A stretch of 32,260 nucleotides of DNA from the NCBI GenBank assembly GCA_964421145.1, contig CAYQVM010000002.1:1-32260 (forward strand). Direction: 5' to 3'. Numbering within the stretch: position 1 is the first letter of the stretch; every line of letters begins with the position of its first letter. The translations under genes and the position numbers were made by a program. Below, in pieces: positions 2,942 through 26,963 of the stretch. A model generated the notes under the pieces. That model had not been told where the DNA came from and did no database searches. It worked only from the letters and a program-made list of their open reading frames with translations. Source of the DNA: an uncultured Planctomycetia bacterium (GTDB lineage: Bacteria > Omnitrophota > Gorgyraeia > JABMQH01).

Positions 2942-2953
2942 ACATAGTGGTTT

Positions 2954-3991: not shown

Positions 3992-4015
3992 AGGTTTTAC
4001 TCCTTTCTTTTTGTA

Positions 4016-5368
4016 TTAAAAATCAATTTGCGCCCTCATGCCGTACACAAAAATAGAGTCCGTATCATCCGTTACATCTTTTCCGAAAGGATTCCATATA
4101 TACTGAAAATCCGGGCTGATAGATAGATGGTCGTTAAGATGCATGTTATAATAGGTCTCAAAGTGGCCCTCATTCTTTGCCCGCAGAGTTGAAGACGCCT
4201 TCTTATAATTATCAGATGGTATCGCTTCGCCTACGGCGAAGGCCAGGATGTCTTCCTTTCGCCCCCAATGGCTGCCGTCAATCTGTAAACCGGCGCTCCA
4301 TGAATGTTCAAGGCTGTATTCAAGTGAGCCAGCCGTTGTCGTGACACTTGGATTGTGCACTTTCGGGTCCTGCCATCCGTATCTGGTAAACAAGGTTATA
4401 ATCTCGTTTACCTTCTGATCAAAGCTTAACCCAAAGCCGTACGCGCCCTCTTTCTTTTTTGAAGTGTCAAGCCACTTTGTATGATAGGCATTATTGCACC
4501 ACCCATAAAAACGGTAATTGCCTTTTAAATCAAAGAATTTGGGCTTGAAGGCAATCTGGCCTATATTAAACAGGCTGTCAAAAATCCTTTCCCAGTCGCT
4601 GTCCGCGTCAAAGGCACCGTAACTTAACTCGATTATTTCCTGCGGTTCCCATGCGAGCCTGATACCGGCCGTATTATCCGGGAACTCAAGCGTCGGGCTG
4701 TTTCTGAATATCTTGCCCAAAAATTGCGTGGTCTCGTCGTTTGCCGCCTCATTGTTGTCAAAATAGGCGGTCGGATCAAGTTTCCCGAATGTAACCATGG
4801 CCTTATCATCAAACAGGCCCTGCTCATACAAAAGCTCCGAGATCCTCACGCTAATATCATTATTGGCGTCCTTGTTCACATTACTGTAGAGGGTCAGTTC
4901 ATTTTCGAGGCCCAGGCCCTGTCCCGTTTCAAGATGGGCAAAGGCCTTCCCGTTTATCTCCTCAAATTCTTTTGTGATCATAATATCCGCGGAATACGAC
5001 GCATCCGCTTTGTCTTCTTTCTTTTTCTCGGTGGCATTGGTATTATTTGTACCCTGGACCACAATCGTGGCGCCGGCCCCTACCGAGAATCCCGCCTTTT
5101 CTATGGCAGGCACCCCGACCTGGCGATGCAGTTGTTGGTCAAAATCGGCGAGCTTAGATTCGTATGAATCGATTTTTTGTTTCTGCTGGGTTATACAGGT
5201 GTTCTGTTCTCTTATGCATTTATCGCATTCCGCAAGCTTATTTTCAAGGGCCTGGACACGGGCCTCCAGTTCGGATACTTTTTCATCAAGCCCGCCTTCC
5301 GCAAAAACAGGCGAGCCCAGTAGTAAACACACAACTGTCAGAAATAAAAACACTCTGCCCAAAAACAT
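4016..5368 (-). CDS. Outer-membrane beta-barrel porin (OprB-like, tentative) with an N-terminal coiled coil
   Basis: I prefer the ATG at 5368 (MFLGRVFLFLTVVCLLLGSPVFA, a signal peptide) because GGAGG lies 7 nt upstream; the ORF track starts at 5425. A coiled-coil segment (SELEARVQALENKLAE...) follows. After it comes a long stretch with alternating hydrophobic and aromatic residues that ends ...YGMRAQIDF, with the C-terminal Phe typical of OM barrels. Confidence 0.7.
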   Translation of the reverse strand: MFLGRVFLFLTVVCLLLGSPVFAEGGLDEKVSELEARVQALENKLAECDKCIREQNTCITQQKQKIDSYESKLADFDQQLHRQVGVPAIEKAGFSVGAGATIVVQGTNNTNATEKKKEDKADASYSADIMITKEFEEINGKAFAHLETGQGLGLENELTLYSNVNKDANNDISVRISELLYEQGLFDDKAMVTFGKLDPTAYFDNNEAANDETTQFLGKIFRNSPTLEFPDNTAGIRLAWEPQEIIELSYGAFDADSDWERIFDSLFNIGQIAFKPKFFDLKGNYRFYGWCNNAYHTKWLDTSKKKEGAYGFGLSFDQKVNEIITLFTRYGWQDPKVHNPSVTTTAGSLEYSLEHSWSAGLQIDGSHWGRKEDILAFAVGEAIPSDNYKKASSTLRAKNEGHFETYYNMHLNDHLSISPDFQYIWNPFGKDVTDDTDSIFVYGMRAQIDF

Positions 5369-5434
5369 ATCCTTACCTCCTTCCATTTTTGCTACCTTTT
5401 TTAAAAAAGTGCTACCGTCACACAAAAAAAATTA

Positions 5435-5848
5435 CTAAATACCCTTCCCGGTCGTAGCCATGCTTAAGGTCCCGTATTTTACACCCTTTATACTCCTGAG
5501 CGTATCCGCCAGGCGCTGAACCTCTTTAGGGGTCCCTTTTACCGCGATGATCTCAAGGCAGTTTTCGTGGTCCAGATGAATATGCTGGGTTGACATGATT
5601 AGTTTTTGAAAATCGTGCTGCAACTCGGTAAGCTTATTGACAAGTTCTCTTTTATGGTGGTCGTAAATAAGGGTGATGGCGCCTGCCACCTCTTTATCTT
5701 CCTGCCATTCCTTTTTTATCAATTCCTGCCGTATCAAATCCCTGATAGCCTCGGAACGGTTGGTATAATTTCTCTTTTTAATAAGCTGGTCAAATTTTTC
5801 CTGAAGGTCTTTTTCTATAGATATGCCAAACCTGATAAGTCTTGCCAT
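5435..5848 (-). CDS. nikR: Nickel-responsive transcriptional regulator NikR
   Basis: The ribbon-helix-helix N-terminus is RFGISIEKDLQEKFDQLIKKRNYTNRSEAIRDLIR. The C-terminal metal-binding domain carries a His/Cys cluster (YDHHKRE...HIHLDHENCLEII). An AAGGAG RBS is present. Confidence 0.9.
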   Translation of the reverse strand: MARLIRFGISIEKDLQEKFDQLIKKRNYTNRSEAIRDLIRQELIKKEWQEDKEVAGAITLIYDHHKRELVNKLTELQHDFQKLIMSTQHIHLDHENCLEIIAVKGTPKEVQRLADTLRSIKGVKYGTLSMATTGKGI

Positions 5849-11291: not shown

Positions 11292-11534
11292 TTAAATTTT
11301 GTGCTGGGCGAGATACCTGAAGGCGCTCAGCTCGGTCTTGGAGCCTTCGCCGACGGCTATAATAATCTGCTTCTCCGGCACACCCGTAACATCGCCTGCG
11401 GCAAATATACCCGGAACATTCGTCTCGTTGTGACAGTTCACCTTTATTTCTCCGGATTGGTTGATTCCAATATCTTTGACAAAATGCACATTAGGGGTAA
11501 AGCCTATCTCTACGAATAAGCCCTGAACATCCAT
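11292..11534 (-). pseudogene. C-terminal remnant of an AhpF/thioredoxin-reductase-like flavoprotein
   Basis: The 80-aa ORF GLFVEIGFTPNVHFVK...GEIKVNCHNETNVPGIFAAGDVTGVPEKQIIIAVGEGSKTELSAFRYL matches only the last ~75 residues of TrxB/AhpF, including the GIFAAGD FAD motif. The rubrerythrin stop lies 17 nt upstream, so there is no room for the missing ~230 N-terminal residues. Confidence 0.7.
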
Positions 11535-13525: not shown

Positions 13526-14947
13526 CTAAAAGAAAAGGTCTCTTTTGCCTTTTTCAAGGTCTTTCAATTTTTTAAGCGTTGCCTCTTTTACGGTAGTATT
13601 CGATATTGAGCCGGCCTCTTTAGCGACAATACCTGAAATCTCGACCGACTTATCGGGGCAATAATCCAGCGCGTACTCCTTAAAGGTCAAAAGCGCATTC
13701 GGGAGGCAGAAATTATGTATGTCGCCCGGCTTTGCCAGGTCCATAAAATCTTCCCCTGTCCTGCCCACCCTGTAGCAGGCAGTGCAGAAACTTGGGATAT
13801 AACCGCGGTTAACAATATCTACGATAACCTCTCTTAAAGAGCGGCTATCGCTTAATGAAAACTGTCCGGCGCTGTCTTTCTGTGTATATCCGCCTGGATT
13901 TGTCCTTGAGCCGGCTGAGATCTGCGAAATCCCCAAATCCAGCAGTTCGTTCCTTAATGAGGCTGTTTCCCTTGTTGACAATATCACCCCGGTATATGGG
14001 ACAGATAGCCTGAGAACCGCCACAAGTTTCTTAAAATCCTCACCCGAAACAGGGCATGGCGGATTTATGGAAATGGGCGCGCCCTGGGCAGGCTCTATCC
14101 TCGGCACTGAAATCGTATGTGGCCCAACACCAAATTTCTCTTCAAGGTACCGCGCGTGAGAAAGCAGGCCCAATACCTCAAATTTGTAATCATACAGGCC
14201 GAAAAGAACCCCTATGCCAACATCATCTATGCCCGCCTCCTGGGCGATATCCATTGCGTAAAGCCTTTTATAATAATCGCTCTTGGGCCCCGCGGTATGC
14301 ATAGCTCTATAAGTTTCTTTATGATATGTCTCCTGAAATAACTGATACGTCCCTATGCCTGCTTTTTTTAATCTCCTGAATTCTTTATATTTTAACGGGG
14401 CGACATTTACATTTACGCGGCGAATTACCCCTCTCTTATTTCTTGTTTCGTAGACGGTTTTTACCGCCCTTTCAAGATAACCGATATCGGAACCCGCGCT
14501 CTCCGAGGCCACCAGAAGAAGCCGTTTGTGGCCCTGGGCCAGAAGCGCTTTGACCTCTTTCTTAATCTCGGCCGCGCTTAAGCGCTTCCTTTTAATATTT
14601 TTGTTCCGGGCCCTGAAACCGCAATATAGGCAATCATTGGCGCACTTGTTTGAAAGATATAGTGGCGCAAAAAGGACGACCCTTTTACCGTATATCAATT
14701 CCTTGATCCTGCTTGCCGCATTAAAGATCTCGATTAGGAAATCCCTGTCATCGCAATTCAGTAACAGCGCCGCCTCTTTTAATCCAAGGCCCTTCAGATC
14801 CAGCGCCTTCTTTATAATGCGCCTTGCCTTCGGCCTTGAAAATTTGGCCTCTGCGATAATATTGTGCATTGTCACTTCATCAATAAATGTTTTCACCCAG
14901 CCCCTCCTACCAACCCAATTCCCCTCCATAGGAGGGGCTGGGTTCAT
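13526..14947 (-). CDS. hydG: [FeFe]-hydrogenase maturase HydG (radical SAM tyrosine lyase)
   Basis: The radical SAM motif is CANDCLYCGF. The HydG-specific C-terminal CX2CX22C motif (CTAC + 22 aa + C in SFCTACYRVGRTGEDFMDLAKPGDIHNFC) distinguishes it from ThiH. An ATGA overlap links it to the hydE 3' part. Confidence 0.9.
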   Translation of the reverse strand: MNPAPPMEGNWVGRRGWVKTFIDEVTMHNIIAEAKFSRPKARRIIKKALDLKGLGLKEAALLLNCDDRDFLIEIFNAASRIKELIYGKRVVLFAPLYLSNKCANDCLYCGFRARNKNIKRKRLSAAEIKKEVKALLAQGHKRLLLVASESAGSDIGYLERAVKTVYETRNKRGVIRRVNVNVAPLKYKEFRRLKKAGIGTYQLFQETYHKETYRAMHTAGPKSDYYKRLYAMDIAQEAGIDDVGIGVLFGLYDYKFEVLGLLSHARYLEEKFGVGPHTISVPRIEPAQGAPISINPPCPVSGEDFKKLVAVLRLSVPYTGVILSTRETASLRNELLDLGISQISAGSRTNPGGYTQKDSAGQFSLSDSRSLREVIVDIVNRGYIPSFCTACYRVGRTGEDFMDLAKPGDIHNFCLPNALLTFKEYALDYCPDKSVEISGIVAKEAGSISNTTVKEATLKKLKDLEKGKRDLFF

Positions 14948-15444
14948 AACCCCAAATCTGTAGGCGCCCTGCCTAATTCTTTCAAAAGCGCCAACGCCTC
15001 CTCAATCTGTTTATTAACCGGCTTGTCAACATCGGCCCTGTCCTTGTATATCTCGTATTGCCGCCTGTATTTAAGCGGCGTTACATTGAGCATGAATGAA
15101 TTCGCCCCCGAAAGCAGGCCCTCCCGCCGCATCCCCGCATCAACGGTCTCAAGAGCGGTCGTAACGAGTATCTTGGCGTCCGGGACCATCAGCCTTGTAA
15201 TGGCGATGAATTTAAGCATCTCATCTTTTGAAATAATTCCGCTGTCCTTAAGCGGCGTATCCGGATGCGGTATAAACGGCCCGAAGGAATACATCTCGGC
15301 GCCGAATGATTTCGCCAACAGGATGTCTTCTACCAGATCCTCTTTCATCTGGCCTGGCAGGCCCAGGAGGTCTCCGGTGGCGATGAGATATCCCATTTCC
15401 TTAAAAAAGTTTAAATGCGCGATTCTGTCTTCAAATTTATTGCT

Positions 15445-15590
15445 AATGAAGGATGCATATCTGAATGAAATGGACAAATTACCATCACTTCTCCAGTATG
15501 TTCATTAATACTTTTGATTTCTAAACCTATCTCTTCTAATCTACTAATTGATTTTTTATAATCATCAAGAATTACTAATATAAAAATCCT
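15445..15590 (-). other. AT-rich foreign-looking patch inside hydE, carrying an alternative-frame ORF with a primase CHC2 zinc-finger-like motif
   Basis: My hand count gives 18 G+C in the 90 nt at 15501..15590, about 20%, against visibly higher G+C in the flanks. The +1 frame (ORF 15411..15608) stays open across the patch and reads ...RLEEIGLEIKSINEHTGEVMVICPFHSDMHPSLAIN. This resembles the LG.E.K...G.....CPFH.D..PSL.I start of CHC2 primase zinc fingers. Confidence 0.5.
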
Positions 15591-16005
15591 GCCCTCTCTC
15601 GCCCACACTTAAAAAAATCAAAACAGGAAAATCTCTTCTTATCTTTCTGATCAGTTCTTCAAACACATCCGTTGTATAGTAATTATCTTCGCCTGATTGA
15701 AGAACCAATGCTTTAAAGCCAAGCCCGACCGCCTCTTTTACGCTGTCCAGTATCTCCTGAGGTGTCATTCGGTATCGCGGCAAGGTCTTATTTGACTTCC
15801 TTATTCCGCAATAAAGGCAGTCGTTACCGCAAAAATTTGAAAACTCTATTATTCCGTGGATACAGCAGGAATTGCTCAGATTCTTCTGCCTGAGGGCGTT
15901 TGCGGTCTTAAAAAGAAACTCTGCCTCGTTCTTCTTGTCTATATTAAAAAGCTTAAGGGCTTTTTGACTTGTAATAGGGGCAGTTATCCTGCCATCAAAC
16001 TTACT

Positions 16006-16239
16006 CAACTGGCTGTCTATCTTTTTAAGCTCGAAAAAAAGCTCTTTCCATGCCTCAAGCGACTTGGCCGCTTCGTCCCGGCTGACTTTTTGTATTACAA
16101 AGCCGCCCTGGGCATACACATAATCACCCAATGAAAGTTCCAGAAAGTCATTTCTGGCCTTCTTTGCCTCGCCAAAATAATCTATTATGGCAAGGCCGGG
16201 TTTTATGTCTATTATCTTTCCCGGTATAGCGTAGCACAT
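16006..16239 (-). other. HypC/HupF-like domain forming the N-terminus of the HydE ORF
   Basis: MCYAIPGKIIDIKPGLAIIDYFGEAKKARNDFLELSLGDYVYAQGGFVIQKVSRDEAAKSLEAWKEL can be compared with E. coli HypC, MCIGVPGQI...A.VD..G....V.L......G.WVLVHVGFA...I...EA. The essential Cys2 is present. Confidence 0.75.
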
Positions 16240-16240
16240 T

Positions 16241-16858
16241 TTACGATTTGAGGACGGCTTCCCTGCGGCACTTCGGGCACATGACCCGGAATCTATCCGC
16301 TCGTCTTGAGTCCGGCTGCCCTTGTGGTTTTTTTGCTTTCTCGGTTTTCGGCACGAGGGATAATTTACTAAGATATGTTAAAAATACGGAGGGATTTGAA
16401 AACATAAGCGGCCCTAATCTATCCGCAACCCATAGATATTGGTCTTTCGGCACAATGATCTCGCCGCAGCACTCGCAGGCAATAAGCTCTTTTTCTATCT
16501 CCTGTTTTAGATCCTGTCTTTTTTCCGTAGTTGCCAGGTCAAACTCCCTTGTAAGCATTATCCCTTTTTCTGTAGGGCAATTCGCCTGGCACTGGCCGCA
16601 GAATATGCACAAATCCATTGTATAAATTAAGGTGCGCGCAGGCTTCCCCTTCTTAATCTCATCCTTAAAGGATAACGCGCCCGATGGGCATACCTGGGTG
16701 CACGCAGCGCAGCCTATGCAATCCTCTTCGTGAAATTCGGGCTTGCCCCTGAAGGCCTCATATGGCTCATGCGGCGCATAAGGAAACTTAGCCGTATACG
16801 GCCCTTTTATCAGCGCCTTTACCGCCTCTTTAAGTTCGCGTAGTTTCGGGTATCTCAT
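16241..16858 (-). CDS. NuoI/MbhN/HycF-like 2x[4Fe-4S] subunit of the membrane-bound hydrogenase, with a Cys-rich C-terminal extension
   Basis: CIGCAACTQVCP and CIFCGQCQANCP are the two cluster motifs. The additional C-terminal CECCGE...CPKCRRE is zinc-ribbon-like. An ATGA overlap links it to the upstream mrpG-like gene. Confidence 0.85.
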   Translation of the reverse strand: MRYPKLRELKEAVKALIKGPYTAKFPYAPHEPYEAFRGKPEFHEEDCIGCAACTQVCPSGALSFKDEIKKGKPARTLIYTMDLCIFCGQCQANCPTEKGIMLTREFDLATTEKRQDLKQEIEKELIACECCGEIIVPKDQYLWVADRLGPLMFSNPSVFLTYLSKLSLVPKTEKAKKPQGQPDSRRADRFRVMCPKCRREAVLKS

Positions 16859-17181
16859 TTTTTATCTTCCGCGTATTTATCGCAAACAGACTTGTCCCAG
16901 AGCTTAATCCCTGACTTATGCGCGCCTCTTGCCAGGGCATGCGCTGAAACGGGTGCGGTCAAAATTATAAACAGAATACAAAGAAGCGCCTTTATGCCTG
17001 CCGCGGTAAACCCTCTGGATAAAAATAGCCCAAGCAAAATACTGCACGTCCCCAAGGTCACGCATTTTGTTGAAGCCTGAAGCCGGTTGTAGACATCAGG
17101 AAGCCTAATCAATCCCAAACAGCCAAAAAAATCAAAAATTAAACCTATCCAAATAAATGCATATACGATAATTTCATTCAT
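16855..17181 (-). CDS. Mrp/Mnh antiporter subunit G homologue (MbhC-like)
   Basis: MNEIIVYAFIWIGLIFDFFGCLGLIRLPDVYNRLQASTK is the MnhG/PhaG signature. I prefer the ATG at 17181; the track ORF starts at 17262. Confidence 0.85.
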   Translation of the reverse strand: MNEIIVYAFIWIGLIFDFFGCLGLIRLPDVYNRLQASTKCVTLGTCSILLGLFLSRGFTAAGIKALLCILFIILTAPVSAHALARGAHKSGIKLWDKSVCDKYAEDKK

Positions 17182-17536
17182 CAAAGTTTCTCCCCTCAAG
17201 ATATTTGGCCAATGCCAGAGTAGAGATAAAACTCTGCAGGGCCCATGCAATGCCGATATCAATATACCAGTCCCTTCCGGTAGAAATTTCTAATATTGCG
17301 CAAAAACCCAAAACCAGGATTCCCAAAATGTCGATTGCCACCGCCCTATCAGCGGGTGTTGGGCCCTTTATGACGCGCCAAAGGCAAAATAATCCGCAAA
17401 ATAATAGTATCAGAAAACAGCGTTTCAAAAAAGATGATTGCCATTCCAATATAGAATAAAATGGGTCAAACCACGCCAGCAAAAATATGCCTATAAGTAA
17501 TACAAGCCCTAACACCCAACGCGCTCTTTTCGCCAT
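17174..17536 (-). CDS. Mrp/Mnh antiporter subunit F homologue (MbhB-like)
   Basis: The small 3-TM protein has RVIKGPTPADRAVAIDILG.... Confidence 0.8.
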   Translation of the reverse strand: MAKRARWVLGLVLLIGIFLLAWFDPFYSILEWQSSFLKRCFLILLFCGLFCLWRVIKGPTPADRAVAIDILGILVLGFCAILEISTGRDWYIDIGIAWALQSFISTLALAKYLEGRNFDE

Positions 17537-18030
17537 TACTCAAAAATCCTCTTTAATACGCCCTCAAATATCTTTACAATTAGCTCGCTTGCCTTCTGGA
17601 CATCTTTGGATTTCACATCAATCCAGTGGATGTATAAAAAACCGTTTTCCTGGTCTATGTCCACGGTCATTGTGCCGGGCGTAAGCGTGATGGAATTCGC
17701 CAGGAATGTCAAACCCGCATCGGTCTTTAATATAGTTTTAACCTTGACAATCCCCGGATTTATTGGCAAATCAGGATGAATCACGCGATAAGCGACATCT
17801 ATATTTGCCTTTATGCACTCCCAAATAAACAGGGGCACATAATACAGAAACCAAAGATAACGGCTGATATGCCTAAATATATGCGGCCTTCTCACAAATA
17901 GATCGCCGGTCATAAAAGCGATGAAACCCGCGATAAGAATCCCGACAACAAGATGCTGGAAATCCAGCGGCCAAGTCAAAAAGGCCCACACCAAAAATGC
18001 AAGTATGAACAATATGGTTTTGCTTTTCAT
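17536..18030 (-). CDS. Mrp/Mnh antiporter subunit E homologue (MbhA-like)
   Basis: Two N-terminal TM helices are followed by ...LANSITLTPGTMTVDID...LYIHWID, which is MnhE-like. Confidence 0.8.
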   Translation of the reverse strand: MKSKTILFILAFLVWAFLTWPLDFQHLVVGILIAGFIAFMTGDLFVRRPHIFRHISRYLWFLYYVPLFIWECIKANIDVAYRVIHPDLPINPGIVKVKTILKTDAGLTFLANSITLTPGTMTVDIDQENGFLYIHWIDVKSKDVQKASELIVKIFEGVLKRIFE

Positions 18031-18031
18031 C

Positions 18032-19519
18032 TTATTTTAACGCGCTAAAAATCGCCTCAGCGTAACCCTTGCCTAACAGCAAAACATTGGCTGCGGATTC
18101 AAGGAATGGCTTAAAATTTGACATAAGCAGTAAACCGCTGATTGCGCAGATAACAGCTAAAACTGTCATTGAAAATCTCATTGGCCAAGGCACCTCTTTT
18201 ATTTTTGACCATACCTCATTAATCTTGCCAAAAAAACTGAATCCGATAAATTTTAAATAATAGGCTAAGGTTATAATACTCACTAATACGGCAATCAGGG
18301 CAAATCCAAAATACCCTGCCTGCACCGCGGCGATAATTATAATCAACTTGCTAAAGAACCCGCCCAATGGCGGAATTCCGGAAATGCTCATGGACCCCAC
18401 AAGGCCGGTATAACCAGTAACTGGCAGGCGATTGTTCAGGCCCCCTAACCTCTTTAAGTCGCGGGTGCCTGTGGAATATTCAATAGCGCCTGAATTTAAG
18501 AAAAGAAGCGATTTAAAAACAGCGTGATTAAACAAGTGGAATAAGGCCCCCAAAATAGCTAAAGGCGTGGCAAGGCCTAATGCGAAAACAATATACCCTA
18601 CTTGACTAATGCTGGAATAAGCAAACATCCTTTTTATATCATGCTGGGCCAAAGCTAATATGGCGCCCACGACCATAGAGATTAGGCCTAAGACCATCAA
18701 TATAAAGAGTATCTTATTATCAACTCCTAGGATATTAAAAAAGACCCTGGCAATAGCGTATACGCCCAATGTCTTGATAAAGACCCCTGAAAGCATCGCC
18801 GAGATTGACGCCGGGGCGGATGGGTGCGCATCCGGCAGCCAGGCATGAAACGGAATAAGCGCCGCCTTTAAACCAAAACCCATTAGAAATAACACTGATA
18901 TAAATATAACCGTTAAACCTCCGCCTTTTTGAGACAGGCTTAATGAGATATCCGCCATATTCAGCGTAGAGGTATAACTGTATAATACAGCAATCCCCAG
19001 AAGCACAAAGCTGGAAGCCACCGAGCCCATAACCGCGTATTTAAACGACGCCTCCAGCTCCTCCGCTTCGGTCCCGAAGGCAACCAGGGCATAACTCGCG
19101 ATAGAGGCGATTTCTAAAAAGACAAACAGATTAAATAAATCGCCGGTAATGATTATCCCGTTCATACCTGCGAGCATCAGCATAAATAAAGTATAAAATT
19201 TACATTTATCGGTATATTTCTCCATGTAGGCTATTGAATATATCGTCACGAGAAGGCTCACTAAATTTACGGTAACAAGCATAAAGGATGTAAGGCCGTC
19301 CAAAACCATGCAGATTCCTATGGGGGGCATCCAGCCGCCTACTTTATATACTAGAACCTTATGCGCTTTAACCAGGGCAATAGAATACAATGAACATGCC
19401 AGTAAAGCGCCCGTGCCTAAATTGGCCAGGACATCGGCCATCCCCTTCGCCTTCTTTGCCAGAAGCGAAATCACGAATGCCGCACCTAAAGGAATAGCCA
19501 CAAACAATGGTAATATCAT
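18032..19519 (-). CDS. MrpD/NuoN/MbhH-like antiporter-type (proton-conducting) subunit
   Basis: The 495-aa polytopic protein has the complex I subunit 2/4/5-family core (...HAWLPDAHPSAPASISAMLSGVFIKTLGVY...FAYSSISQVGYI...FHLFNHAVFKSLLFL). Confidence 0.9.
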   Translation of the reverse strand: MILPLFVAIPLGAAFVISLLAKKAKGMADVLANLGTGALLACSLYSIALVKAHKVLVYKVGGWMPPIGICMVLDGLTSFMLVTVNLVSLLVTIYSIAYMEKYTDKCKFYTLFMLMLAGMNGIIITGDLFNLFVFLEIASIASYALVAFGTEAEELEASFKYAVMGSVASSFVLLGIAVLYSYTSTLNMADISLSLSQKGGGLTVIFISVLFLMGFGLKAALIPFHAWLPDAHPSAPASISAMLSGVFIKTLGVYAIARVFFNILGVDNKILFILMVLGLISMVVGAILALAQHDIKRMFAYSSISQVGYIVFALGLATPLAILGALFHLFNHAVFKSLLFLNSGAIEYSTGTRDLKRLGGLNNRLPVTGYTGLVGSMSISGIPPLGGFFSKLIIIIAAVQAGYFGFALIAVLVSIITLAYYLKFIGFSFFGKINEVWSKIKEVPWPMRFSMTVLAVICAISGLLLMSNFKPFLESAANVLLLGKGYAEAIFSALK

Positions 19520-19854
19520 CCGCTTAATCTCCGAATCTTGGTTATATCAAAAGTGCCGTACTTCTCATAGAGTCTTATGGCAATGGCTACAATCAATGCG
19601 GTAATCGCCAGGCCGATGACGATGGCGGTTAATACCAAGGCCTGCGGTATAGGATCTACCATATTTGAAATTGCCTGATCCTTAGCCAATATCGGCGCGC
19701 GGCCCTGATTGCGGTATCCGACCAGCACAAAAAATAGATTTACCGCGTACTCAATGATCCCCAAACCAATGACAATCTTGATAATATTTCTCTTTCTTAC
19801 GACGCAGTAAAGCCCGATGGAAAATAAGACAAGGCACAACATATATTCAATCAT
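19516..19854 (-). CDS. MrpC/MnhC/NuoK-like subunit (MbhG-like)
   Basis: The 112-aa 3-TM protein has GLGIIEYAVNLFFVL and PIPQALVLTAIVIGLA, which is MnhC-like. Confidence 0.85.
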   Translation of the reverse strand: MIEYMLCLVLFSIGLYCVVRKRNIIKIVIGLGIIEYAVNLFFVLVGYRNQGRAPILAKDQAISNMVDPIPQALVLTAIVIGLAITALIVAIAIRLYEKYGTFDITKIRRLSG

Positions 19855-20303
19855 TCGTCTTTATCCGATCCTTTAAATAATATCAACGCCGCAAAAATGG
19901 CAAACAGGCCCGCCCCCACCTTAAGAGATATAGCGATATTGCATAAGGGGATAATGCCCGCGCTGAATAAATCAAACGGCCTGCCTTTATGCGCAAAGAA
20001 ATTCAAAAAGAAACAACCCCCGCCTATTAAACCGATTAGCGCTATTGACAAAAACATAATACCGCCCAGGCTCTCCAAAATAGATGCGCCAGTTTGAGAC
20101 AATTTTTTTAACGCTGTTTCCCTGCCAAAGGCAAGCATAAGATGAATAAAAGATAGCCCGATAATTACTCCGCCAGCAAATCCGCCGCCCGGCCTAATAT
20201 GACCGTGCAAACCAATATATATGCCGTACAGGAGTATCAGCCCCACGGTAAGGCGTGTGATAGTCTTAACAATTACGGTCATTCCGGTTTCCGCGTTCTT
20301 CAT
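19851..20303 (-). CDS. MrpB/MnhB-domain subunit (MbhF-like)
   Basis: The 150-aa 4-TM protein has HGHIRPGGGFAGGVIIG, the MnhB-domain hallmark. Confidence 0.8.
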   Translation of the reverse strand: MKNAETGMTVIVKTITRLTVGLILLYGIYIGLHGHIRPGGGFAGGVIIGLSFIHLMLAFGRETALKKLSQTGASILESLGGIMFLSIALIGLIGGGCFFLNFFAHKGRPFDLFSAGIIPLCNIAISLKVGAGLFAIFAALILFKGSDKDE

Positions 20304-20818
20304 TTTTTCACTCTTCCTATTTTCCTTATCACCGCCAAGACGCCCATCACCGCAGTAAACAGGACCGTCGCCTCGCCCAAGGTATCATAACCTCTAAAAT
20401 CCAAGATTATGGCAGCGACAATATTAGCCGCGCCTGTCTTTTGCAGGCCCTGCTTAAGATAATCCTGGGCCACCCTCATAATCGGCTGGCCAAAAGGGGG
20501 CAGTTCACTGAAAGCAAAATAGCCAAACAATAAAAATAAGGCAATAAATAGCAATGTAGAAATGGTATTAAAGAACCACCTGCCGTCTGTGATCAAAGGA
20601 AGGTCCTTTTTTATAGTTGCGCGGATAAGTATAATTAGACAAAGAATTTCAACAACGAGCTGGGTTATTGCCAAATCCGGCGCCTTTAAGAGCAAAAAGG
20701 CCAAAGAAAGCCCTAGGCCAACCGCGCCCACAGCGATTACGCTTGAGAGCAGGTCTTCAATCATAACCGCTGCGACAGCGGCAGCAATCATAAACAACAT
20801 AAGTAGTTGCAGTTCCAT
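20300..20818 (-). CDS. DUF4040 (MbhD-like) fused to an MbhE / MrpA-C-terminal-like segment
   Basis: The N-terminal half ...LLKAPDLAITQLVVEI... is DUF4040-like. The C-terminal half has GAANIVAAIILDFRGYDTLGEATVLF, typical of the MrpA C-terminus and MbhE. Confidence 0.75.
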   Translation of the reverse strand: MELQLLMLFMIAAAVAAVMIEDLLSSVIAVGAVGLGLSLAFLLLKAPDLAITQLVVEILCLIILIRATIKKDLPLITDGRWFFNTISTLLFIALFLLFGYFAFSELPPFGQPIMRVAQDYLKQGLQKTGAANIVAAIILDFRGYDTLGEATVLFTAVMGVLAVIRKIGRVKK

Positions 20819-20819
20819 A

Positions 20820-22490
20820 TTACTTCCTTAGCAATACCAAAAATAACCAAATCATCCCTAAAAGCGTCCAGACCAGATACGTTGGCAAGACTCCGTTATG
20901 CAGATACCGAAAGAATCCGCCTATACCGAGCATGAGGTTCTTGCCCTGCTCATATAAGTCAAAAACACCGGCCTCTGCCTTTTTGTAAATACTGGCCAGT
21001 ATCCCGTATTCTTTTATAGTATTGTAAAACTCTGTGCCCGGCACCCTGGTTTCAGGAAGGTCCTTTGTCTCACTGCCGATATACGGGGTATCCCGCCTGA
21101 TAGCAGGTCTTATCCCTTTTAAGCTGAATATAAATACGCCAAGGAGCAGTCCGACAATAATCAACAATGTAGACAATCCCGCATACCACGTCCCGATAAA
21201 ATTTACGCCAGGGATCGCGGGAAGTATAAAATATTTAAGCGGGATTTGATACGCAAACACGCCGAATACGACGCATAGAATCGCCAACGCCGCAGGCGGT
21301 ATCCACATTGCCCAGGAAACCTCATTCTCTGGTTCTTTAGTTTTTCCGTTCTTCGGCTGACCTAAGAACGTAGCATGCATCAACTTCATAAAACTCGCCA
21401 GTGTAAGTCCTGATCCAAACATTGCCGCGGCCAAGCACACTACGGCAACTAAACTGGTGACCTGGTGACCTGGTGACCTATTGACCTGTTGTACGAGCCC
21501 CTGGTAAATCATCCATTTTGAAACAAAGCCGTTAAAAGGAGGAACGCCTGATATGGCCAAGCTTGCGATAAGCGCCACGGCATAAGTAACAGGCATTGTT
21601 TTAGACAGCCCGCCTAATTTGTCTAAATCGGTTGTGCCTGTTTTCTGCTCCACATTTCCTGAGGCCAAAAATAACGCTTGTTTATATATAGAATTATTCA
21701 GCATATGAAATATCCCGCCGGCAATACCGACGGGGTTCCCTGTGCCAATGCCTAAGACCATATAGCCCACCTGCGAAACCGCATGATAGCCAAGAAGCCT
21801 TTCCATATTGTGCTGAACCAAGGCCATCATAACTGCGGCGATTATTGTAAATGCACCAACGAGCATTAAAAATATATTCATGGCCTGATTCATTGTGAAT
21901 AAATTCAAGGACAAGCGGGCCAAAAGATAAATGCCTAATAACTTATCCAATGAAGCGAGTAGATACGCCGCAACCGGGACTGGCGCGCTCTTTGCGCAGT
22001 CGGGAACCCAGGAATGGAACGGCATCGCGCCCGCCTTTGCGAAACAGGCAATGGCTATGCATATATAAGCAACGACTGATAACCGATTGCCTGCAAGCGA
22101 TAGCTGGATCTTATCCATTTGAAAGGTGTTGGTTAAGTGATATATTATGCCTATGCCCAGAAGCATAAGGGCATCCGAGCCGCCTACAATGATAAATGTC
22201 TTTTTCGCAACCAAACTGGAATCCTCATCGCCCATCATTATTAAAAGATATAACGTAAGGCCCAAAAATCCCCAAAGTATAAGGAGTAAAATCATATTGT
22301 TGGCAAGCACCGCGAGGATTGAGGCAACTGCGGTTAATGCGATATAGGCATAATAAGAGAGGTTCCTCTCCCGTCCCCTCATAAACCCTATGGAATAGAT
22401 TAATGTCAAGGCATAAAACAGGGCTATCGCCATTATCACAAAACTATTAAGCGGGTCCAATTTAAACCACGGGTAAAGTTTCATATTCAT
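20820..22490 (-). CDS. NuoL/MrpA-N/HyfB-like antiporter-type subunit (second large pump module)
   Basis: The 556-aa polytopic protein has ...PFHSWVPDCAKSAPVPVAAYLLASLDKLLGIYLL...LGYHAVSQVGYMVLGIG...FHMLNNSIYKQALFL. Confidence 0.9.
   Translation of the reverse strand: MNMKLYPWFKLDPLNSFVIMAIALFYALTLIYSIGFMRGRERNLSYYAYIALTAVASILAVLANNMILLLILWGFLGLTLYLLIMMGDEDSSLVAKKTFIIVGGSDALMLLGIGIIYHLTNTFQMDKIQLSLAGNRLSVVAYICIAIACFAKAGAMPFHSWVPDCAKSAPVPVAAYLLASLDKLLGIYLLARLSLNLFTMNQAMNIFLMLVGAFTIIAAVMMALVQHNMERLLGYHAVSQVGYMVLGIGTGNPVGIAGGIFHMLNNSIYKQALFLASGNVEQKTGTTDLDKLGGLSKTMPVTYAVALIASLAISGVPPFNGFVSKWMIYQGLVQQVNRSPGHQVTSLVAVVCLAAAMFGSGLTLASFMKLMHATFLGQPKNGKTKEPENEVSWAMWIPPAALAILCVVFGVFAYQIPLKYFILPAIPGVNFIGTWYAGLSTLLIIVGLLLGVFIFSLKGIRPAIRRDTPYIGSETKDLPETRVPGTEFYNTIKEYGILASIYKKAEAGVFDLYEQGKNLMLGIGGFFRYLHNGVLPTYLVWTLLGMIWLFLVLLRK
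21454..21493. repeat. 8-nt tandem repeat inside the NuoL-like gene
   Basis: CTGGTGAC occurs three times perfectly (21454..21477), followed by two degenerate units, CTATTGAC and CTGTTGTA. This stretch encodes ...QQVNRSPGHQVTSLV.... Confidence 0.95.
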
Positions 22491-23692
22491 ATAGCGGGCG
22501 ATCCCTTATTTGCCCTTATATTTTCGGTTTTTTCCTGTGACAGTTTTATCAAATCCCAGCCGTCCATAATCTTCTTATCCGTATGCCTATCCAAAACCGC
22601 AAGCCTTTCGGTGCAGCAGTAACAGGGATCCACCGCGGCCAAGGTAATCGCCGCGTCCGAAATGGTGCCGCCGAGCGCGGCAACCTTATTGGAGGCAACG
22701 TTCATGTAGCTTGGCGCGCGTATCTTGTGCCTTATAGGGCGGTTCGTGCCGTCGCTCTTTACATAATGGAAGCACTCGCCCCTTGGCGCCTCAACACGCC
22801 CTATGCCTTCCCCGGGCGGTATATCCTTTACGTTCGCGTCAATATCTCCCTTGGGCATCTTATCTAAGCATTGACGAATAATACCCACAGATTCGTAAAG
22901 CTCGAGGATTCTTACCACGGTCTTGGCAAATATATCCCCGTCTTTTTTGACAATCACGCTCCATTTCACTCTATCATAGGCGCCATATGGGTCATCCCGC
23001 CGCACATCTATGTCTACGCCTGCAGCCCTGGCGGTAGGGCCTACGACACACCAGTCAATAGCCTGTTGTTTATTCAGTATGCCTATGCCCTTAAGCCGCG
23101 CCTGTATCACGGGGTCATCCATTACCGCGCCTTTAAACATATCAACAACAGGTACCAAATCATCAAGCGCCTTCCTTAATATAGGCATGTGCTCATCCTG
23201 TATATCCCGCCTGACGCCCCCAATCTTGCTCATACCGTAATGATTTCGGTTTCCGGAAATCATCTCAAACATATCCAGCACCGGCTCTCTGTAACGCCAC
23301 GCCCACATCCATACGGTGTTGTATCCGATAAAATGCCCTGCTAAACCCAACCACAACAGATGGCTGTGTATCCTCTGCAACTCGTCAACTATCGTCCTTA
23401 TGTAAAGCGCGCGTTCGGGCACGACTGTTCTTTCTCCACCCAGGATATCTTCAACGGCAAGAACGAACGCATAAGGATGGCTTGAGGAACAGATGCCGCA
23501 TATGCGCTCAACCAAAAACGGCACCTGGTCGAAATGCTTGTGTTCGGAAAGTTCCTCTATGCCGCGGTGCATATAACCGAGGACTATATCTATATCTACA
23601 ACCTTCTCGCCTTCCACATAAAGCCTGAAAAGTTCCGGCTCCTCCTGTAGGGGGTGGTATGGCCCTATTGGAATTACAACTTTATGGCTCAT
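22487..23692 (-). CDS. Group-4 [NiFe]-hydrogenase large (catalytic) subunit, NuoD/MbhL/EchE-like
   Basis: Both Ni-Fe ligand pairs are intact. The N-terminal motif is RICGICSSSH and the C-terminal motif is DPCYCCTER. The NuoD-like core includes EAPRGE. Confidence 0.92.
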   Translation of the reverse strand: MSHKVVIPIGPYHPLQEEPELFRLYVEGEKVVDIDIVLGYMHRGIEELSEHKHFDQVPFLVERICGICSSSHPYAFVLAVEDILGGERTVVPERALYIRTIVDELQRIHSHLLWLGLAGHFIGYNTVWMWAWRYREPVLDMFEMISGNRNHYGMSKIGGVRRDIQDEHMPILRKALDDLVPVVDMFKGAVMDDPVIQARLKGIGILNKQQAIDWCVVGPTARAAGVDIDVRRDDPYGAYDRVKWSVIVKKDGDIFAKTVVRILELYESVGIIRQCLDKMPKGDIDANVKDIPPGEGIGRVEAPRGECFHYVKSDGTNRPIRHKIRAPSYMNVASNKVAALGGTISDAAITLAAVDPCYCCTERLAVLDRHTDKKIMDGWDLIKLSQEKTENIRANKGSPAI

Positions 23693-24113
23693 GTTCGTGC
23701 CTCAACGGAAACTTTCCTTCCGGCCAATCCTCGGCCAGAAGCAACCGTTTTAAATCCGGATGCCCCTTGAAATTTATACCCAGCATTTCCCAAATCTCGC
23801 GCTCAATCCACTCTGCGCCCGGAAATATGGCGGCAATAGAATCTATCTCGGGATTTTTCTTATTCTTGATCAAAACGCGCGCAGAGACCATCTCGCCCGT
23901 CTTATCAAAACTAAAATGATACAGTATCTCAAGGCCTCTCGGGGTATCCTCGCCCGTAGCGATTGCGAATCTCAAATTAAGTTCCTTAAACAAAATGGTT
24001 GCTACCTCTTTTATATCCTCTGGCTTGATCGAAAAGTAAACCCTGCGAGGTGAGTGCTCGCGCCAATCGCTTATTTTATTCGCTAACTTTTTCTTGATTT
24101 CGTTCTTTATCAT
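23682..24113 (-). CDS. NuoC/MbhK-like 30-kDa subunit
   Basis: The 143-aa ORF has FPGAEWIEREIWEMLGINFKGHPDLKRLLL, the NuoC signature. Confidence 0.88.
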   Translation of the reverse strand: MIKNEIKKKLANKISDWREHSPRRVYFSIKPEDIKEVATILFKELNLRFAIATGEDTPRGLEILYHFSFDKTGEMVSARVLIKNKKNPEIDSIAAIFPGAEWIEREIWEMLGINFKGHPDLKRLLLAEDWPEGKFPLRHEHEP

Positions 24114-24115
24114 TG

Positions 24116-24544
24116 TTATTGGTTTTTATCTTGAACCTTTTTTATCAGTTTCACCACTGCGGCAATCATCGCCTCCGGCTTGGGCGGGCAGCCAGGAACA
24201 TACGCCGCTACAGGCACCACCTCGTCAACCGGGCACGGGCTGTTATATGAATCCTTAAACATAATCCTGCCGCAGGCGCAGCTGCCTATTGCCATAACTA
24301 AACAAGGCTGAGGCGCCTGGCTATACAACTTCTTTAGCCTATCTCTGGTTTTATAATTAGGCACTCCGGTAACGAGAAGCACGTCCGCATGCCTTACGCT
24401 CCCTACCAACATTATACCAAACCTTTCTACGTCATGCCGCGGAGTAAGGACATCCAATATCTCGATGTCGCAATTGTTGCAAGGCGAGCATGCCGCATGA
24501 AACACCCATAAAGATTTGGTCAGAGCCTTAAGTTTGATACTCAT
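24116..24544 (-). CDS. NuoB/MbhJ-like hydrogenase small subunit (proximal [4Fe-4S])
   Basis: The Cys ligands are present in FHAACSPCNNCDIE, GSCACGR and VPGCPPKPE. Confidence 0.9.
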   Translation of the reverse strand: MSIKLKALTKSLWVFHAACSPCNNCDIEILDVLTPRHDVERFGIMLVGSVRHADVLLVTGVPNYKTRDRLKKLYSQAPQPCLVMAIGSCACGRIMFKDSYNSPCPVDEVVPVAAYVPGCPPKPEAMIAAVVKLIKKVQDKNQ

Positions 24545-24551
24545 ATATGTT

Positions 24552-24663
24552 AAATCCGAATTACCAATGACGAATGACTAAATAATTTTCAATTCTTCAA
24601 TATCCAATTTGGAATTTGGTTATTGGAAATTAATTCGTCATTCGGATTTCGTCATTGGTCATT
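24552..24663. repeat. Structured intergenic repeat element between the NuoH-like and NuoB-like genes
   Basis: AATGAC occurs twice (24566, 24573) and its complement GTCATT three times (24637, 24651, 24658). There is a perfect 11-bp inverted repeat CCAATGACGAA (24564..24574) / TTCGTCATTGG (24648..24658). A second 10-bp pair is AAATCCGAAT (24552..24561) / ATTCGGATTT (24640..24649). The centre has reiterated AATTTGG-like units. Confidence 0.85.
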
Positions 24664-24666
24664 ACC

Positions 24667-25578
24667 TTATTGGCCTATCAACGCTAGCCCTACCGCCGCT
24701 ATGGCCAATAAGGTTACCGGCCCCCAGAAAAACTTCAGCGCCTGATCAATCCTGAGCCGCGGGTTGGTATTTTTTATCAGAATAAAAATAACTAGTATCG
24801 CTATATATTTTAGAATCAACGCCAGCGGGCCCAGGCCGCCGGCCCAGAACAAGCTTATCAAAAACAGCGGCATGATGTAAAGAAGTATCGCCTTTGTCAA
24901 TTTAAATATTGCCAGCGGCAGCCCTGAATACTCTATGAGGGCGCCCGCCATTATCTCCTGCTCTGCCTCAGATGCGTCAAACGGAACAAAACCCAACTTT
25001 GCCTGCATGCAAAATATGGCTATAATAAACGCCAGTATCCCGGACAGCGAAGAGATATTTGAGCCGAAATTCATCTGATGATTCAAAATCTCGCCTATCC
25101 GTATAGCCCCCTGTGATTTAAGTATTATCGCAATAACAGACAATATAAACGGCAACTCATACGCTAAAACCAGTTTCATCTCACGCGAGGCGCCGATAGA
25201 GGCAAGGGGGTTCCTTGAAGACGAGGCCCCAATTATTAAAGATATAGCCGGTATGACCAGAAGATATAAAACAACAATTAAATCACCTATGAAACTTCCC
25301 ATAGGCACGCGGATGGCGGCACCCAAAATCGTCGCCACCAAAATCACGCTTAACAGGCCTATATACGGAGACAATAAAAATGTCACGCCAGCGCCTTCGG
25401 GCACAATGGTCTCCTTACCCAGCAATTTTGCGATATCAACAAAATTCTGATACCATGGCGGCCCCACGCGCCACTGAATGCGCGCGGTAACCTTTCTGTC
25501 AACCCAGCCCGCCATCAACCCTACGCAAGCGGCGAATAGGAAACCAGGAAATATTAAGTAGTTAAACAGTATTTTCAT
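24667..25578 (-). CDS. NuoH/MbhM/HycD-like membrane subunit
   Basis: MKILFNYLIFPGF...DRKVTARIQWRVGPPWYQNF is the NuoH N-terminal signature. I prefer the ATG at 25578, which forms an ATGA overlap with the upstream ferredoxin gene. The track ORF starts at 25614. Confidence 0.9.
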   Translation of the reverse strand: MKILFNYLIFPGFLFAACVGLMAGWVDRKVTARIQWRVGPPWYQNFVDIAKLLGKETIVPEGAGVTFLLSPYIGLLSVILVATILGAAIRVPMGSFIGDLIVVLYLLVIPAISLIIGASSSRNPLASIGASREMKLVLAYELPFILSVIAIILKSQGAIRIGEILNHQMNFGSNISSLSGILAFIIAIFCMQAKLGFVPFDASEAEQEIMAGALIEYSGLPLAIFKLTKAILLYIMPLFLISLFWAGGLGPLALILKYIAILVIFILIKNTNPRLRIDQALKFFWGPVTLLAIAAVGLALIGQ

Positions 25579-26069
25579 GTTTTCTTCGGCGGATGAATAT
25601 CTTCCCGCGACCACTTAAGCGTCTGAACCGCCAGATTATCTCCTATGAAATATATATTTTTCTCTAGGTCCTCCTGAACCTCTTTGATATCAATTGCATT
25701 CTCTGGACAACTCTTGACGCACTTAGGTAATTTTCCAGATATCCCAACACAAAAGTCGCACCGCGAATCCAGATATGAAATAAACTCCTGGGATATTATC
25801 CCGAACGGGCACGCCACCGAACAGGACTTGCAGCTGGTGCAGCGCATCTTGTAACGTTTGATATGACCGTCCGTGGCGCGCTCAAGCGCGTTATGATAAC
25901 ACGAGTTAACGCATGGCGCCTCTTCGCAGTGGCGGCATATTGTAGCGAAAGTGGCGTATTCGCGAAGCGACGTTATGCCGTTATTCTGCGGATGATAAAA
26001 ATATTCGCAGCATACCTTGCATTCGCTACACTTGTCACAAATTTCTAAATTGACGTATAATCTTTTCAT
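25575..26069 (-). CDS. HycB/HydN-like poly-ferredoxin (multiple [4Fe-4S])
   Basis: The 164-aa ORF has four Cys clusters: CDKCSECKVCC, CRHCEEAPCVNSC, CTSCKSCSVACP and CDFC...CVKSCP. Confidence 0.85.
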   Translation of the reverse strand: MKRLYVNLEICDKCSECKVCCEYFYHPQNNGITSLREYATFATICRHCEEAPCVNSCYHNALERATDGHIKRYKMRCTSCKSCSVACPFGIISQEFISYLDSRCDFCVGISGKLPKCVKSCPENAIDIKEVQEDLEKNIYFIGDNLAVQTLKWSREDIHPPKKT

Positions 26070-26147: not shown

Positions 26148-26963
26148 CTAATCCCATATATCGTGTATATCCTTCAGTTCCTCATACGTGAACACAGGCC
26201 CGTCTTTGCACGCATAGAATTTTCCAATCCTGCAATGGCCGCATTTCCCGAGTCCGCAGGACATATTCTTTTCCATGGATAGATATATGTCGGCCGGTTT
26301 AAACCCTATCTCCAGCAATTTCAATATAACAAATTTCATCATTATCGGCGGCCCGCAAACTATAGAAACCGCGTTGTTCAATTTTACGGGTAAATCCTTT
26401 AATATGGTAGTAACCAATCCTACGTTTCCCTTCCATGCGTGATCTCCGATGTCAACGGTAGTAACCACATCCACCTTTTTCTTCCTCGCCCACTTGGGTA
26501 TCAATTCCTTGTATATAATATCGTTAGGGGTGCGCGCCCCATACCTTAACAATACCTTATTATATCTGTCTATATCTGAAAAAATGGTCAGTAATAAGGA
26601 GCGCAACGGCGCTAATCCAACACCGCCTCCTATTATCAAGACATCTTTACCGGCAAACTTATCCAGCGGATAACCCTTTCCGTAGGGGCCGCGTATGCCG
26701 ACGCTATCATTTCTCCTTATGCTATGCAGTTTGGAAGTAACATAACCTACATTCATTATCGTAATATCCATCTTCTCTTTTATATTCGGATCAGAGGAAG
26801 GGGTAAAAGGCGCCTCGCCCAAGCCGGGCACGGTCAGCTCTATAAACTGCCCTGTCTGGAATGAAAAATCTACCTTAGGCCTTAATACAAAGGTTTTTAT
26901 TGTAGGTGATTCGTCCTTTATATCTTCAATTATTGCCTCAACGGGCTGGTAAATATTTTTCAT
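26148..26963 (-). CDS. FAD/NAD(P)H-binding [2Fe-2S] oxidoreductase subunit (AsrB / sulfhydrogenase-gamma / PyrK-like)
   Basis: The ferredoxin-reductase-type fold has a GQFIEL region, then LIIGGGVGLAPL at the nucleotide-binding site. The C-terminal Cys cluster is MSCGLGKCGHC...YACKDGPVF. Confidence 0.85.
   Translation of the reverse strand: MKNIYQPVEAIIEDIKDESPTIKTFVLRPKVDFSFQTGQFIELTVPGLGEAPFTPSSDPNIKEKMDITIMNVGYVTSKLHSIRRNDSVGIRGPYGKGYPLDKFAGKDVLIIGGGVGLAPLRSLLLTIFSDIDRYNKVLLRYGARTPNDIIYKELIPKWARKKKVDVVTTVDIGDHAWKGNVGLVTTILKDLPVKLNNAVSIVCGPPIMMKFVILKLLEIGFKPADIYLSMEKNMSCGLGKCGHCRIGKFYACKDGPVFTYEELKDIHDIWD

Follow-up and report, generated by a model that had tools for sequence, protein, structure and literature searches.

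In this study, a 32,260-nt stretch of DNA from an uncultured Planctomycetia bacterium placed in the Omnitrophota (contig CAYQVM010000002.1 of assembly GCA_964421145.1; hereafter the window) was analysed with attention to positions 13,526 to 16,239. In this region, a gene joining a HypC-like domain to a HydE-like radical S-adenosylmethionine (SAM) enzyme is followed by hydG, and both genes follow the structural genes of a [NiFe] hydrogenase. The pair is one copy of a widespread and conserved two-gene module (HypC–HydE plus HydG), which here ends a group 4 [NiFe] operon. Open reading frame (ORF) calls and Pfam scans placed the hydrogenase-region genes of the 32-kb window in one long minus-strand cluster (Table 1). 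The HypC, HydE and HydG identities of the module pass, or closely approach, the curated thresholds of their families.

The fusion gene begins with a HypC/HupF-type domain. Residues 1-64 matched PF01455 (HupF_HypC) at an E-value of 2e-15 and 57.1 bits (cutoff 28.5), the domain scored 50.9 bits against TIGR00074 (cutoff 48), and the solved structure of Thermococcus kodakarensis HypC (PDB 2z1c) was matched at an E-value of 3e-11. The HypC-like similarity that the preliminary description of this DNA had read at the ORF start, from the letters alone, did not collapse under these profile and structure-database searches. The start of the fusion one base past the last Mbh-type gene, which the same description had reported, was also borne out: the TAA stop of the MbhN/NuoI-like gene occupies 16243-16241, the single spacer base is 16240, and the fusion ATG lies at 16239-16237. 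The iron-binding N-terminus of HypC (Met-Cys2 and Pro6) is kept as MCYAIPG in the window, and the initial MC was found in all of the 76 intact fusions over which residue conservation was counted. The His that HypC proteins conserve (H51 in E. coli, H45 in T. kodakarensis) is lacking; the window reads YAQGGF at this site, the 2z1c alignment pairs Gln with His, and YAQGG occurs in 69 of the 76 fusions, so the HypC domain of the fusion represents a distinct HypC subtype. H51 has been reported to be required in E. coli and is implicated in iron coordination (PMC12134894).

The HypC frame runs without a stop into HydE radical-SAM sequence (TIGR03956 positions 11-143, 123.6 bits), and this N-terminal half keeps the CX3CX2C motif as CGNDCLYCG. 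The earlier statement that HypC continues into HydE without interruption is correct for this half and fails beyond it. HydE homology ends at ...GERGQDFY (codon 220), the ORF stops at 15567-15565, 224 codons in, and the same frame resumes at 15435 with the HydE C-terminal half (TIGR03956 positions 175-314, 109.3 bits), which contains the equivalents of M224 and M291. The intervening foreign segment of 144 nt is AT-rich (18-34% GC in 50-nt windows) and carries seven in-frame stops, among them TGA, TAA and TAG. Alignments with L076, which is the closest relative, and with homologues of 392 aa demonstrated that the segment stands in for 93 nt coding 'AAMFKAGARGVLLRFETSNSGLYAKIKPGAS' in L076. It is a replacement, not a simple insertion, and 31 HydE codons are lost, including the invariant RFET strand with HydE R159 and E161. 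With TIGR03956 positions 144-174 missing and two separate halves, the window HydE stays below the cutoff of 254.6 bits and has no uninterrupted frame; because the copy is disrupted, it encodes no functional HydE as written.

In the +1 frame, the segment corresponds to the N-terminal CHC2 zinc-finger region of a DNA primase (…VICPFHSDMHPSLAI) and thus to the 5' end of a primase gene of phage or plasmid type. All matches of the segment in a tblastn search of phage and plasmid records were to genes annotated as DNA primase, toprim or CHC2 zinc-finger proteins (best E 7e-4), and the segment was 47% identical to a primase-like protein with a CHC2 zinc-finger N-terminus from the metagenome locus L084, a distant relative that was the sole match in a peptide scan for the donor. 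An exact search with a 32-nt pattern found the segment nowhere else in the metagenome collection, and exact look-ups of the HydG and MbhN proteins of the window also gave no match. Several other explanations of the interruption were rejected. Stop-codon reassignment is ruled out because TGA, TAA and TAG are all in frame, and a hidden frameshift because tblastn with three intact homologues found the missing 31 residues in no frame. An intron, intein, riboswitch or other RNA element is ruled out by the size of 144 nt and by the lack of any Rfam match at E <= 1; the predicted fold also equals that of shuffled sequence (z = 0.00). A repeat or a miniature inverted-repeat transposable element is ruled out by the lack of a second copy on the contig (blastn and repeat search).

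Since a primase fragment replaces 31 codons and adds seven stops, the fusion gene of the window is a recent pseudogene or the site of a local assembly error. An assembly or sequencing artefact in a gene that is intact in the organism appears rather unlikely. The contig is a metagenome assembly, both HydE halves lie in one frame and are well conserved, hydG and the Mbh operon are intact, the segment length is divisible by three, and the segment is absent elsewhere in the metagenome collection, all of which would suit an artefact. However, an artefact needs two separate false joins within 144 nt of one gene, and the segment substitutes for homologous sequence instead of adding to it. Moreover, a minus-strand ORF of 80 aa at 11292-11534, just downstream of a rubrerythrin gene, matches only the last 64 positions of Pyr_redox_2 (thioredoxin-reductase-like), which suggests a truncated gene remnant and gene decay on the contig. 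This second remnant leans the choice to real decay.

The gene that follows the fusion encodes an intact HydG. It scored 522.5 bits against TIGR03955 (cutoff 312) over profile positions 11-469 of 470 and possesses both the N-terminal CX3CX2C and the C-terminal CX2CX22C motif that define HydG, and its ATG overlaps the fusion TGA as ATGA at 14947-14944. The bona fide HydG with CX2CX22C and an ATGA link, as previously described from the letters, is thus confirmed. Both motifs, the C-terminal one in its classical form, were found in 54 of the 62 HydGs examined. ThiH was considered because a ThiF gene adjoins HydG in four loci; it was ruled out by a ThiH score of 305 bits, below the cutoff of 380, against a HydG score of 522, above the cutoff of 312, and by the HydG-specific C-terminal motif. 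The ThiF-family E1-like genes lie immediately upstream of HydG in L008 (7577-8356), L016, L044 and L051. A variant of the auxiliary motif, FCTAGYRCGRTGKC…FC in place of CX2CX22C, was observed in the HydF-adjacent HydGs of the Omnitrophota (L085, 11263-12759; L086; L087) and in one sub-group of fusion-adjacent HydGs (L065, L067, L069, L071 and L080). In a neighbour-joining tree, which is a rough and quick distance tree, the HydF-adjacent HydGs grouped with a single sub-group of fusion-adjacent HydGs, and the other fusion-adjacent HydGs, those of L014 and L015 among them, fell into different clades.

Table 1. Features of the hydrogenase region in the 32,260-nt window.
Feature	Positions	Strand	Basis or remark
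hydG, intact, 473 aa, tyrosine-lyase-type radical-SAM enzyme	13526-14947	-	TIGR03955
HydE C-terminal half of the fusion	14944-15435	-	TIGR03956, Pfam BATS; TGA at 14946-14944 overlaps the hydG ATG
Foreign AT-rich segment, 144 nt	15436-15579	-	Boundaries by DNA/protein alignment and GC content
Linker helix and HydE radical-SAM N-terminal half, residues 76-220	15580-16014	-	TIGR03956; alignments to L076 and 392-aa homologues
HypC/HupF domain, about residues 1-75, N-terminus MCYAIPGK	16015-16239	-	PF01455, TIGR00074, PDB 2z1c
NuoI/MbhN-like 2x[4Fe-4S] subunit, last structural gene	16241-16858	-	Pfam Fer4_7, NCBIfam PRK12387/NuoI
Group 4 [NiFe] large subunit	22487-23692	-	Pfam Complex1_49kDa and NiFeSe_Hases
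Operon remainder: NuoH-like, NuoB-like small subunit, NuoC-like, large subunit	within 16855-25614	-	Pfam scans
Operon remainder, membrane part: two antiporter-type subunits, MbhD/E, MnhB, C, E, F, G	within 16855-25614	-	Pfam scans
Complete Mbh/Mrp-type group 4 [NiFe] hydrogenase	16241-25614	-	
Ferredoxin-like subunit	between the AsrB-like pair and the Mbh/Mrp operon	-	
Fer4_22 protein and AsrB-like FAD/NAD protein	26148-28056	-	Precede the Mbh-type genes
Rex	28185-28808	-	First listed gene of the cluster, from high to low coordinates

The hydrogenase preceding the module shows the features of group 4 Mbh/Mrp-type enzymes. Translation of its large subunit revealed both [NiFe] ligand motifs, RICGICSSSH (L1, RxCGxCxxxH) and DPCYCCTER (L2, DPCxxCxx[HR]), the small subunit is NuoB-like, and the membrane subunits are of the Mrp type. 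The large subunit extends for about 38 aa beyond DPCYCCTER. Neither Pfam scans of the ORFs nor six-frame motif scans detected HydA, HydF or any further Hyp protein in the window, in agreement with the preliminary description, and no HypX was present in the window.

The fusion forms a large and conserved family. The architecture of HypC plus radical SAM was recovered in more than 100 clusters of a protein search, typically at 392 aa and under public names of HydE or HypC-family chaperone. When GTDB was scanned at one genome per species, 398 species genomes proved to encode the fusion, with hosts that include members of the Omnitrophota, Planctomycetota, Elusimicrobiota, WOR-3, Lentisphaerae, Firestonebacteria, Saganbacteria and several DPANN archaeal phyla. 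Mean column identity among the fusions was 63-71%. The radical-SAM cysteines, R159, E161 and M291 were invariant in all 76 intact fusions and M224 was kept in 73, K309 was replaced by Arg in 65, and the auxiliary-cluster cysteines C311, C319 and C322 were absent from every one. Intact relatives scored 248.9-288 bits against TIGR03956 and so straddled its cutoff. In HydE, the methionines M224 and M291 bind Fe(I)(CO)2(CN)S units, which are thought to be dimerised by the enzyme (PMC11826987). An AlphaFold2 model of the full two-domain protein, built with a 102-sequence alignment, had a predicted local distance difference test score (pLDDT) of 94.7 and a predicted template modelling score (pTM) of 0.93, and a long predicted helix (residues 54-78) joins the two domains; these scores are read as a fixed mutual orientation of the HypC and HydE domains in the model. 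In a literature search, no paper was found that analysed a HypC–HydE fusion or proposed HydG for [NiFe] maturation; the one passing mention was a single sentence, given without analysis, on a fused HydE-HypC protein, called unusual there, in a [NiFe] operon of Ca. Centrionella anaeramoebae (bioRxiv 10.64898/2026.04.11.717937). The earlier remark that no description of such a fusion was known is therefore correct only in rough terms, as the fusion is common in databases and named in this 2026 preprint.

Gene neighbourhoods were compared across 82 distinct loci, in which ORFs were called, proteins clustered and recurrent clusters annotated. True HydG, defined as scoring above 300 bits, was present in 60 of the 82 loci, and in 52 it was no more than 300 nt away from the fusion. 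The full-flank subset comprised 45 loci with flanks of 5 kb or more on each side; HydG was present in 41 of them, and hydrogenases were sought within 10 kb. A [NiFe] hydrogenase was found in 24 of these 45 loci, as an Mbh-type operon in 14 and as another type, 3b-like or 3c/Hdr-linked by gene content, in 10. Typically, the structural genes are followed by a HycI-type protease gene, in some loci by a short HypA and in some by HydG, and last by the fusion; the genes are co-directional and nearly abut, with gaps of a few bases, and within [NiFe] operons HydG is inserted after the protease gene and ahead of the fusion. Conservation hence extends well past the window and covers the fusion itself, its HydG neighbour and its terminal location in [NiFe] operons, which was the outcome of the database and neighbourhood check that the preliminary description had proposed. 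Motifs of hypD, hypE or hypF were found within 10 kb in none of the 82 loci and hypB in two, and the HypC domain of the fusion was the only HypC-like N-terminal motif in nearly all loci, with two such motifs in L082.

Some details of these operons vary. The window has no HycI-type protease gene between MbhN and the fusion, whereas most relatives have one; the gap is common to L076, L010, L020 and L022. The HypA genes of L067 (9747-9989), L038 (4871-5128) and L079 (1324-1587) are only 80-87 aa long and match profile positions 1-68 of 112, that is, the N-terminal part without the rest. Directly upstream of the fusion in L079 (4194-6026) lies a group 3 [NiFe] large subunit that is apparently fused to its maturation protease (610 aa in all).

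HydG is the sole well-understood anaerobic enzyme that makes iron-bound CO and CN. A 2025 review placed the anaerobic origin of the [NiFe] CO ligand as the most pressing open question and did not mention HydG. In the present study, real functional coupling is favoured because the fusion is conserved, its domain interface is predicted to be rigid and hydG is found in [NiFe] operons, and also because the HypC domain is of a distinctive subtype with no hypD nearby. The tentative proposal is that HydG and HydE together yield an Fe–CO/CN unit, which the fused HypC passes to [NiFe] large subunits. HydG would cleave tyrosine, and the Fe–CO/CN unit would be assembled on the dangler iron; the HydE domain would then accept the cysteine-bound organometallic iron and liberate it by radical chemistry. 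The rigidly attached HypC domain would take Fe(CO)x(CN)y on its N-terminal Cys and, in the manner of HybG in E. coli and similar operon-specific HypC paralogues, hand it to the adjacent [NiFe] enzyme's apo large subunit. In this way the CO ligand, at the least, would be supplied independently of the anaerobic CO route. The domain identities, the disruption, the conservation and the gene neighbourhoods are observed, whereas this transfer of iron from HydG/HydE through HypC to the large subunit is inferred. The HydG/HydE pair probably supplies [FeFe]-hydrogenase maturation as well where there is a hydF, and the module would therefore be a shared source of organometallic iron; the canonical HydE site and the hydF/[FeFe] contexts are the grounds for preferring this shared-supply version of the proposal.

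Several observations weigh against such a hand-over. The fusion copy of the window is broken. The Fe(I)-binding and dimerising residues of HydE (M224, M291, R159 and E161) are kept at the frequencies given above, and since these H-cluster residues are retained, there is no sign of an altered reaction. The [NiFe] site needs Fe(CN)2(CO). The HydG synthon, however, is Fe(CO)2(CN) (PMC11826987), and this mismatch means that further ligand exchange or input from HypE/F would be required. The lack of hypDEF near the fusion says little, because HypC paralogues of the hybG type also sit away from hypD. Furthermore, 21 of the 45 full-flank loci lacked any hydrogenase in the 10 kb around the fusion. Both L014 and L015 have the HydG-fusion pair at a distance of 4 kb upstream of a bona fide hydF. 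This hydF contains the Pfam domains of HydF, shares 91% identity with a protein that bears the HydF name and has neither a further hydE nor a further hydG next to it; NuoE- and NuoF-like genes follow hydF, and the stretch from hydF onwards lies 4-9 kb from the pair. Genes of the NuoE/NuoF type typically open the HydABC [FeFe] operon. In L051, a hydA with all three H-cluster motifs adjoins the fusion. The preliminary description had held its hypothesis to be weakened by a genome with a canonical [FeFe] hydrogenase, hydF and a full hyp set; the hydF and [FeFe] genes of these three relatives answer to part of this.

The main alternative is that the protein is a plain bifunctional fusion, in which an ordinary, operon-specific HypC/HybG-type chaperone uses HypD/E/F encoded elsewhere and HydE and HydG serve only [FeFe] enzymes whose genes also lie elsewhere, the fusion and the clustering reflecting co-regulation of accessory genes with no chemical hand-over. 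Besides the three loci above, it accords with the fully canonical active-site and iron-binding residues of HydE, with the classical CX2CX22C of HydG and with the position of the fusion, which resembles the terminal position of hybG in the hyb operon of E. coli. It also accords with HydABC, HydF and HydG being encoded in the Omnitrophota. Three Omnitrophota loci retrieved via HydF served as the canonical [FeFe] comparison set, and their gene order is HydABC, a TM1266-like gene, ammonia-lyase, HydF and HydG. In five loci (L018, L020, L036, L045 and L082), a complete glycine-cleavage set of GcvT, GcvH, GcvP1 and GcvP2, a lipoate ligase and a radical-SAM gene lie 3-8 kb downstream of the fusion. 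The H-protein of this system is known to donate the bridging ligand of the H-cluster. The glycine-cleavage genes add to the case for separate functions; their presence near the pair may be significant or may be nothing more than shared synteny.

On the other side, a mean column identity of 63-71% over 398 species in two domains of life, together with the pTM of 0.93, goes beyond loose clustering, and HydG lies inside [NiFe] operons, in the gap between protease and fusion. [NiFe] neighbours were found in 24 of the 45 full-flank loci, whereas [FeFe] or hydF genes were near in only three of the 82 loci. In addition, L085, the sole comparison locus that extends far enough, encodes an unfused HydE of 332 aa with the auxiliary-cluster cysteines, so an unfused HydE exists in the Omnitrophota too, and it stands beside HydF in the same phylum. 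The HypC His that is essential in E. coli is, moreover, replaced by Gln. Taken with these points, a purely bifunctional protein is considered somewhat unlikely.

In a further, minor alternative, the HypC domain serves [FeFe] maturation as a built-in carrier for the HydE product and takes over from HydF or helps it, so that two genes would make up a minimal H-cluster pathway. Such a role would be most relevant in small genomes without HydF, for example those of DPANN archaea, and seven DPANN loci do carry fusion-HydG pairs, six of them without [NiFe] genes within 10 kb. To our knowledge, HypC-family proteins are known solely as [NiFe] chaperones, which counts against this role. The dominant neighbours of the pair are also [NiFe] genes, the pair adjoins the [NiFe] protease and HypA, and hydF is present where an [FeFe] context is visible (L014 and L015). 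A 2024 survey reported that most archaea with active [FeFe] hydrogenases lack conventional maturases and that a few carry incomplete sets (PMC11216029), which counts in favour of the role, as does the predicted rigid packing of the two domains; HypC fusions are not mentioned in that survey. On balance, a HydF-replacing role is considered improbable.

The shared-supply proposal accordingly keeps the form of the cross-over route raised in the preliminary description, in which iron from HydG is given to a HypC-type carrier, with some loss. The HypC identity, the HydG adjacency and the position in the [NiFe] operon all proved to be conserved, but the copy in the window is broken, the HydE residues are canonical, and hydF or hydA occurs in relatives. 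A wider claim would be that a tyrosine-based [NiFe] route operates in many anaerobic bacteria and DPANN archaea, with HydG and HypC-fused HydE building Fe–CO(/CN), the HypC domain inserting it, and the anaerobic CO pathway, possibly also HypD/E/F, being bypassed. This is regarded as possible yet doubtful; if true, [NiFe] and [FeFe] maturation would share one organometallic iron source. The pairing may bear on where anaerobes obtain the [NiFe] CO ligand. HydG is conserved beside HypC–HydE in many phyla and in [NiFe] operons with no fewer than three gene arrangements (Mbh-type, 3b-like and 3c/Hdr-linked), which makes it a concrete candidate pathway open to testing, for which the structural genes, protease, HypA/B, HydG and the fusion form a compact gene set for heterologous expression. 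Even if the favoured proposal is wrong, the fusion still shows tight coupling of the maturation of two hydrogenase types.

The surroundings of the operon in the window were also recorded. The Fer4_22 and AsrB-like pair upstream is the electron-transfer module of 3b-like hydrogenases in related loci, which may point to a membrane hydrogenase linked to NAD(P)H. On its downstream side (1404-5848), the hydrogenase cluster is followed by NikR, a CbiM/CbiQ/ABC-ATPase transporter, probably for nickel uptake, and a porin of the OprB type, and FeoB lies upstream (28805-30532); the operon is therefore flanked by metal supply genes.

Compared with known systems, the HydG of the window agrees with the HydG synthon synthases (TIGR03955) in its full-length, equivalog-level match and in both Cys motifs, and differs in being co-transcribed with a [NiFe] operon and a HypC fusion. 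The HydF-adjacent HydGs retrieved from the Omnitrophota belong to another clade and differ from it by their variant C-terminal motif, CTAGYRC…. Intact fusion relatives are about 45% identical to Thermotoga maritima HydE (PDB 3ciw/7o1o) over the whole domain (229 bits) and conserve its CX3CX2C, R159, E161, M224 and M291. Unlike that enzyme, the fusions bear an N-terminal HypC domain, lack C311, C319 and C322 and mostly have Arg at K309, and the window copy lacks the R159/E161 strand. Unlike the HydE of [FeFe] assembly, the fusion genes usually stand beside [NiFe] and not [FeFe] genes, without hydF.

The HypC domain resembles the HypC/HybG/HupF chaperones in family profiles, solved structures and its MC…P N-terminus, and the fusion resembles E. 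coli hybG in standing at the end of a structural operon, after protease and HypA. It departs from these chaperones in being covalently joined to a 310-aa radical-SAM enzyme, in having Gln where E. coli HypC has H51, and in having no hypD, the gene of HypC's partner in the scaffold complex, within 10 kb in the 82 loci. The fusion of Ca. Centrionella anaeramoebae, as far as its description goes, has the identical domain pair in a [NiFe] operon with protease, HypA and HypB; that operon is of the group 3 type, and HydG is not mentioned for it. Finally, on the reading that HydG/HydE-derived iron reaches the [NiFe] site through HypC, the module would resemble HypX, the aerobic CO-ligand synthase, as a dedicated accessory enzyme system giving CO to the [NiFe] iron, from which it differs in protein family, in its substrate (tyrosine in place of formyl-tetrahydrofolate) and in oxygen regime.

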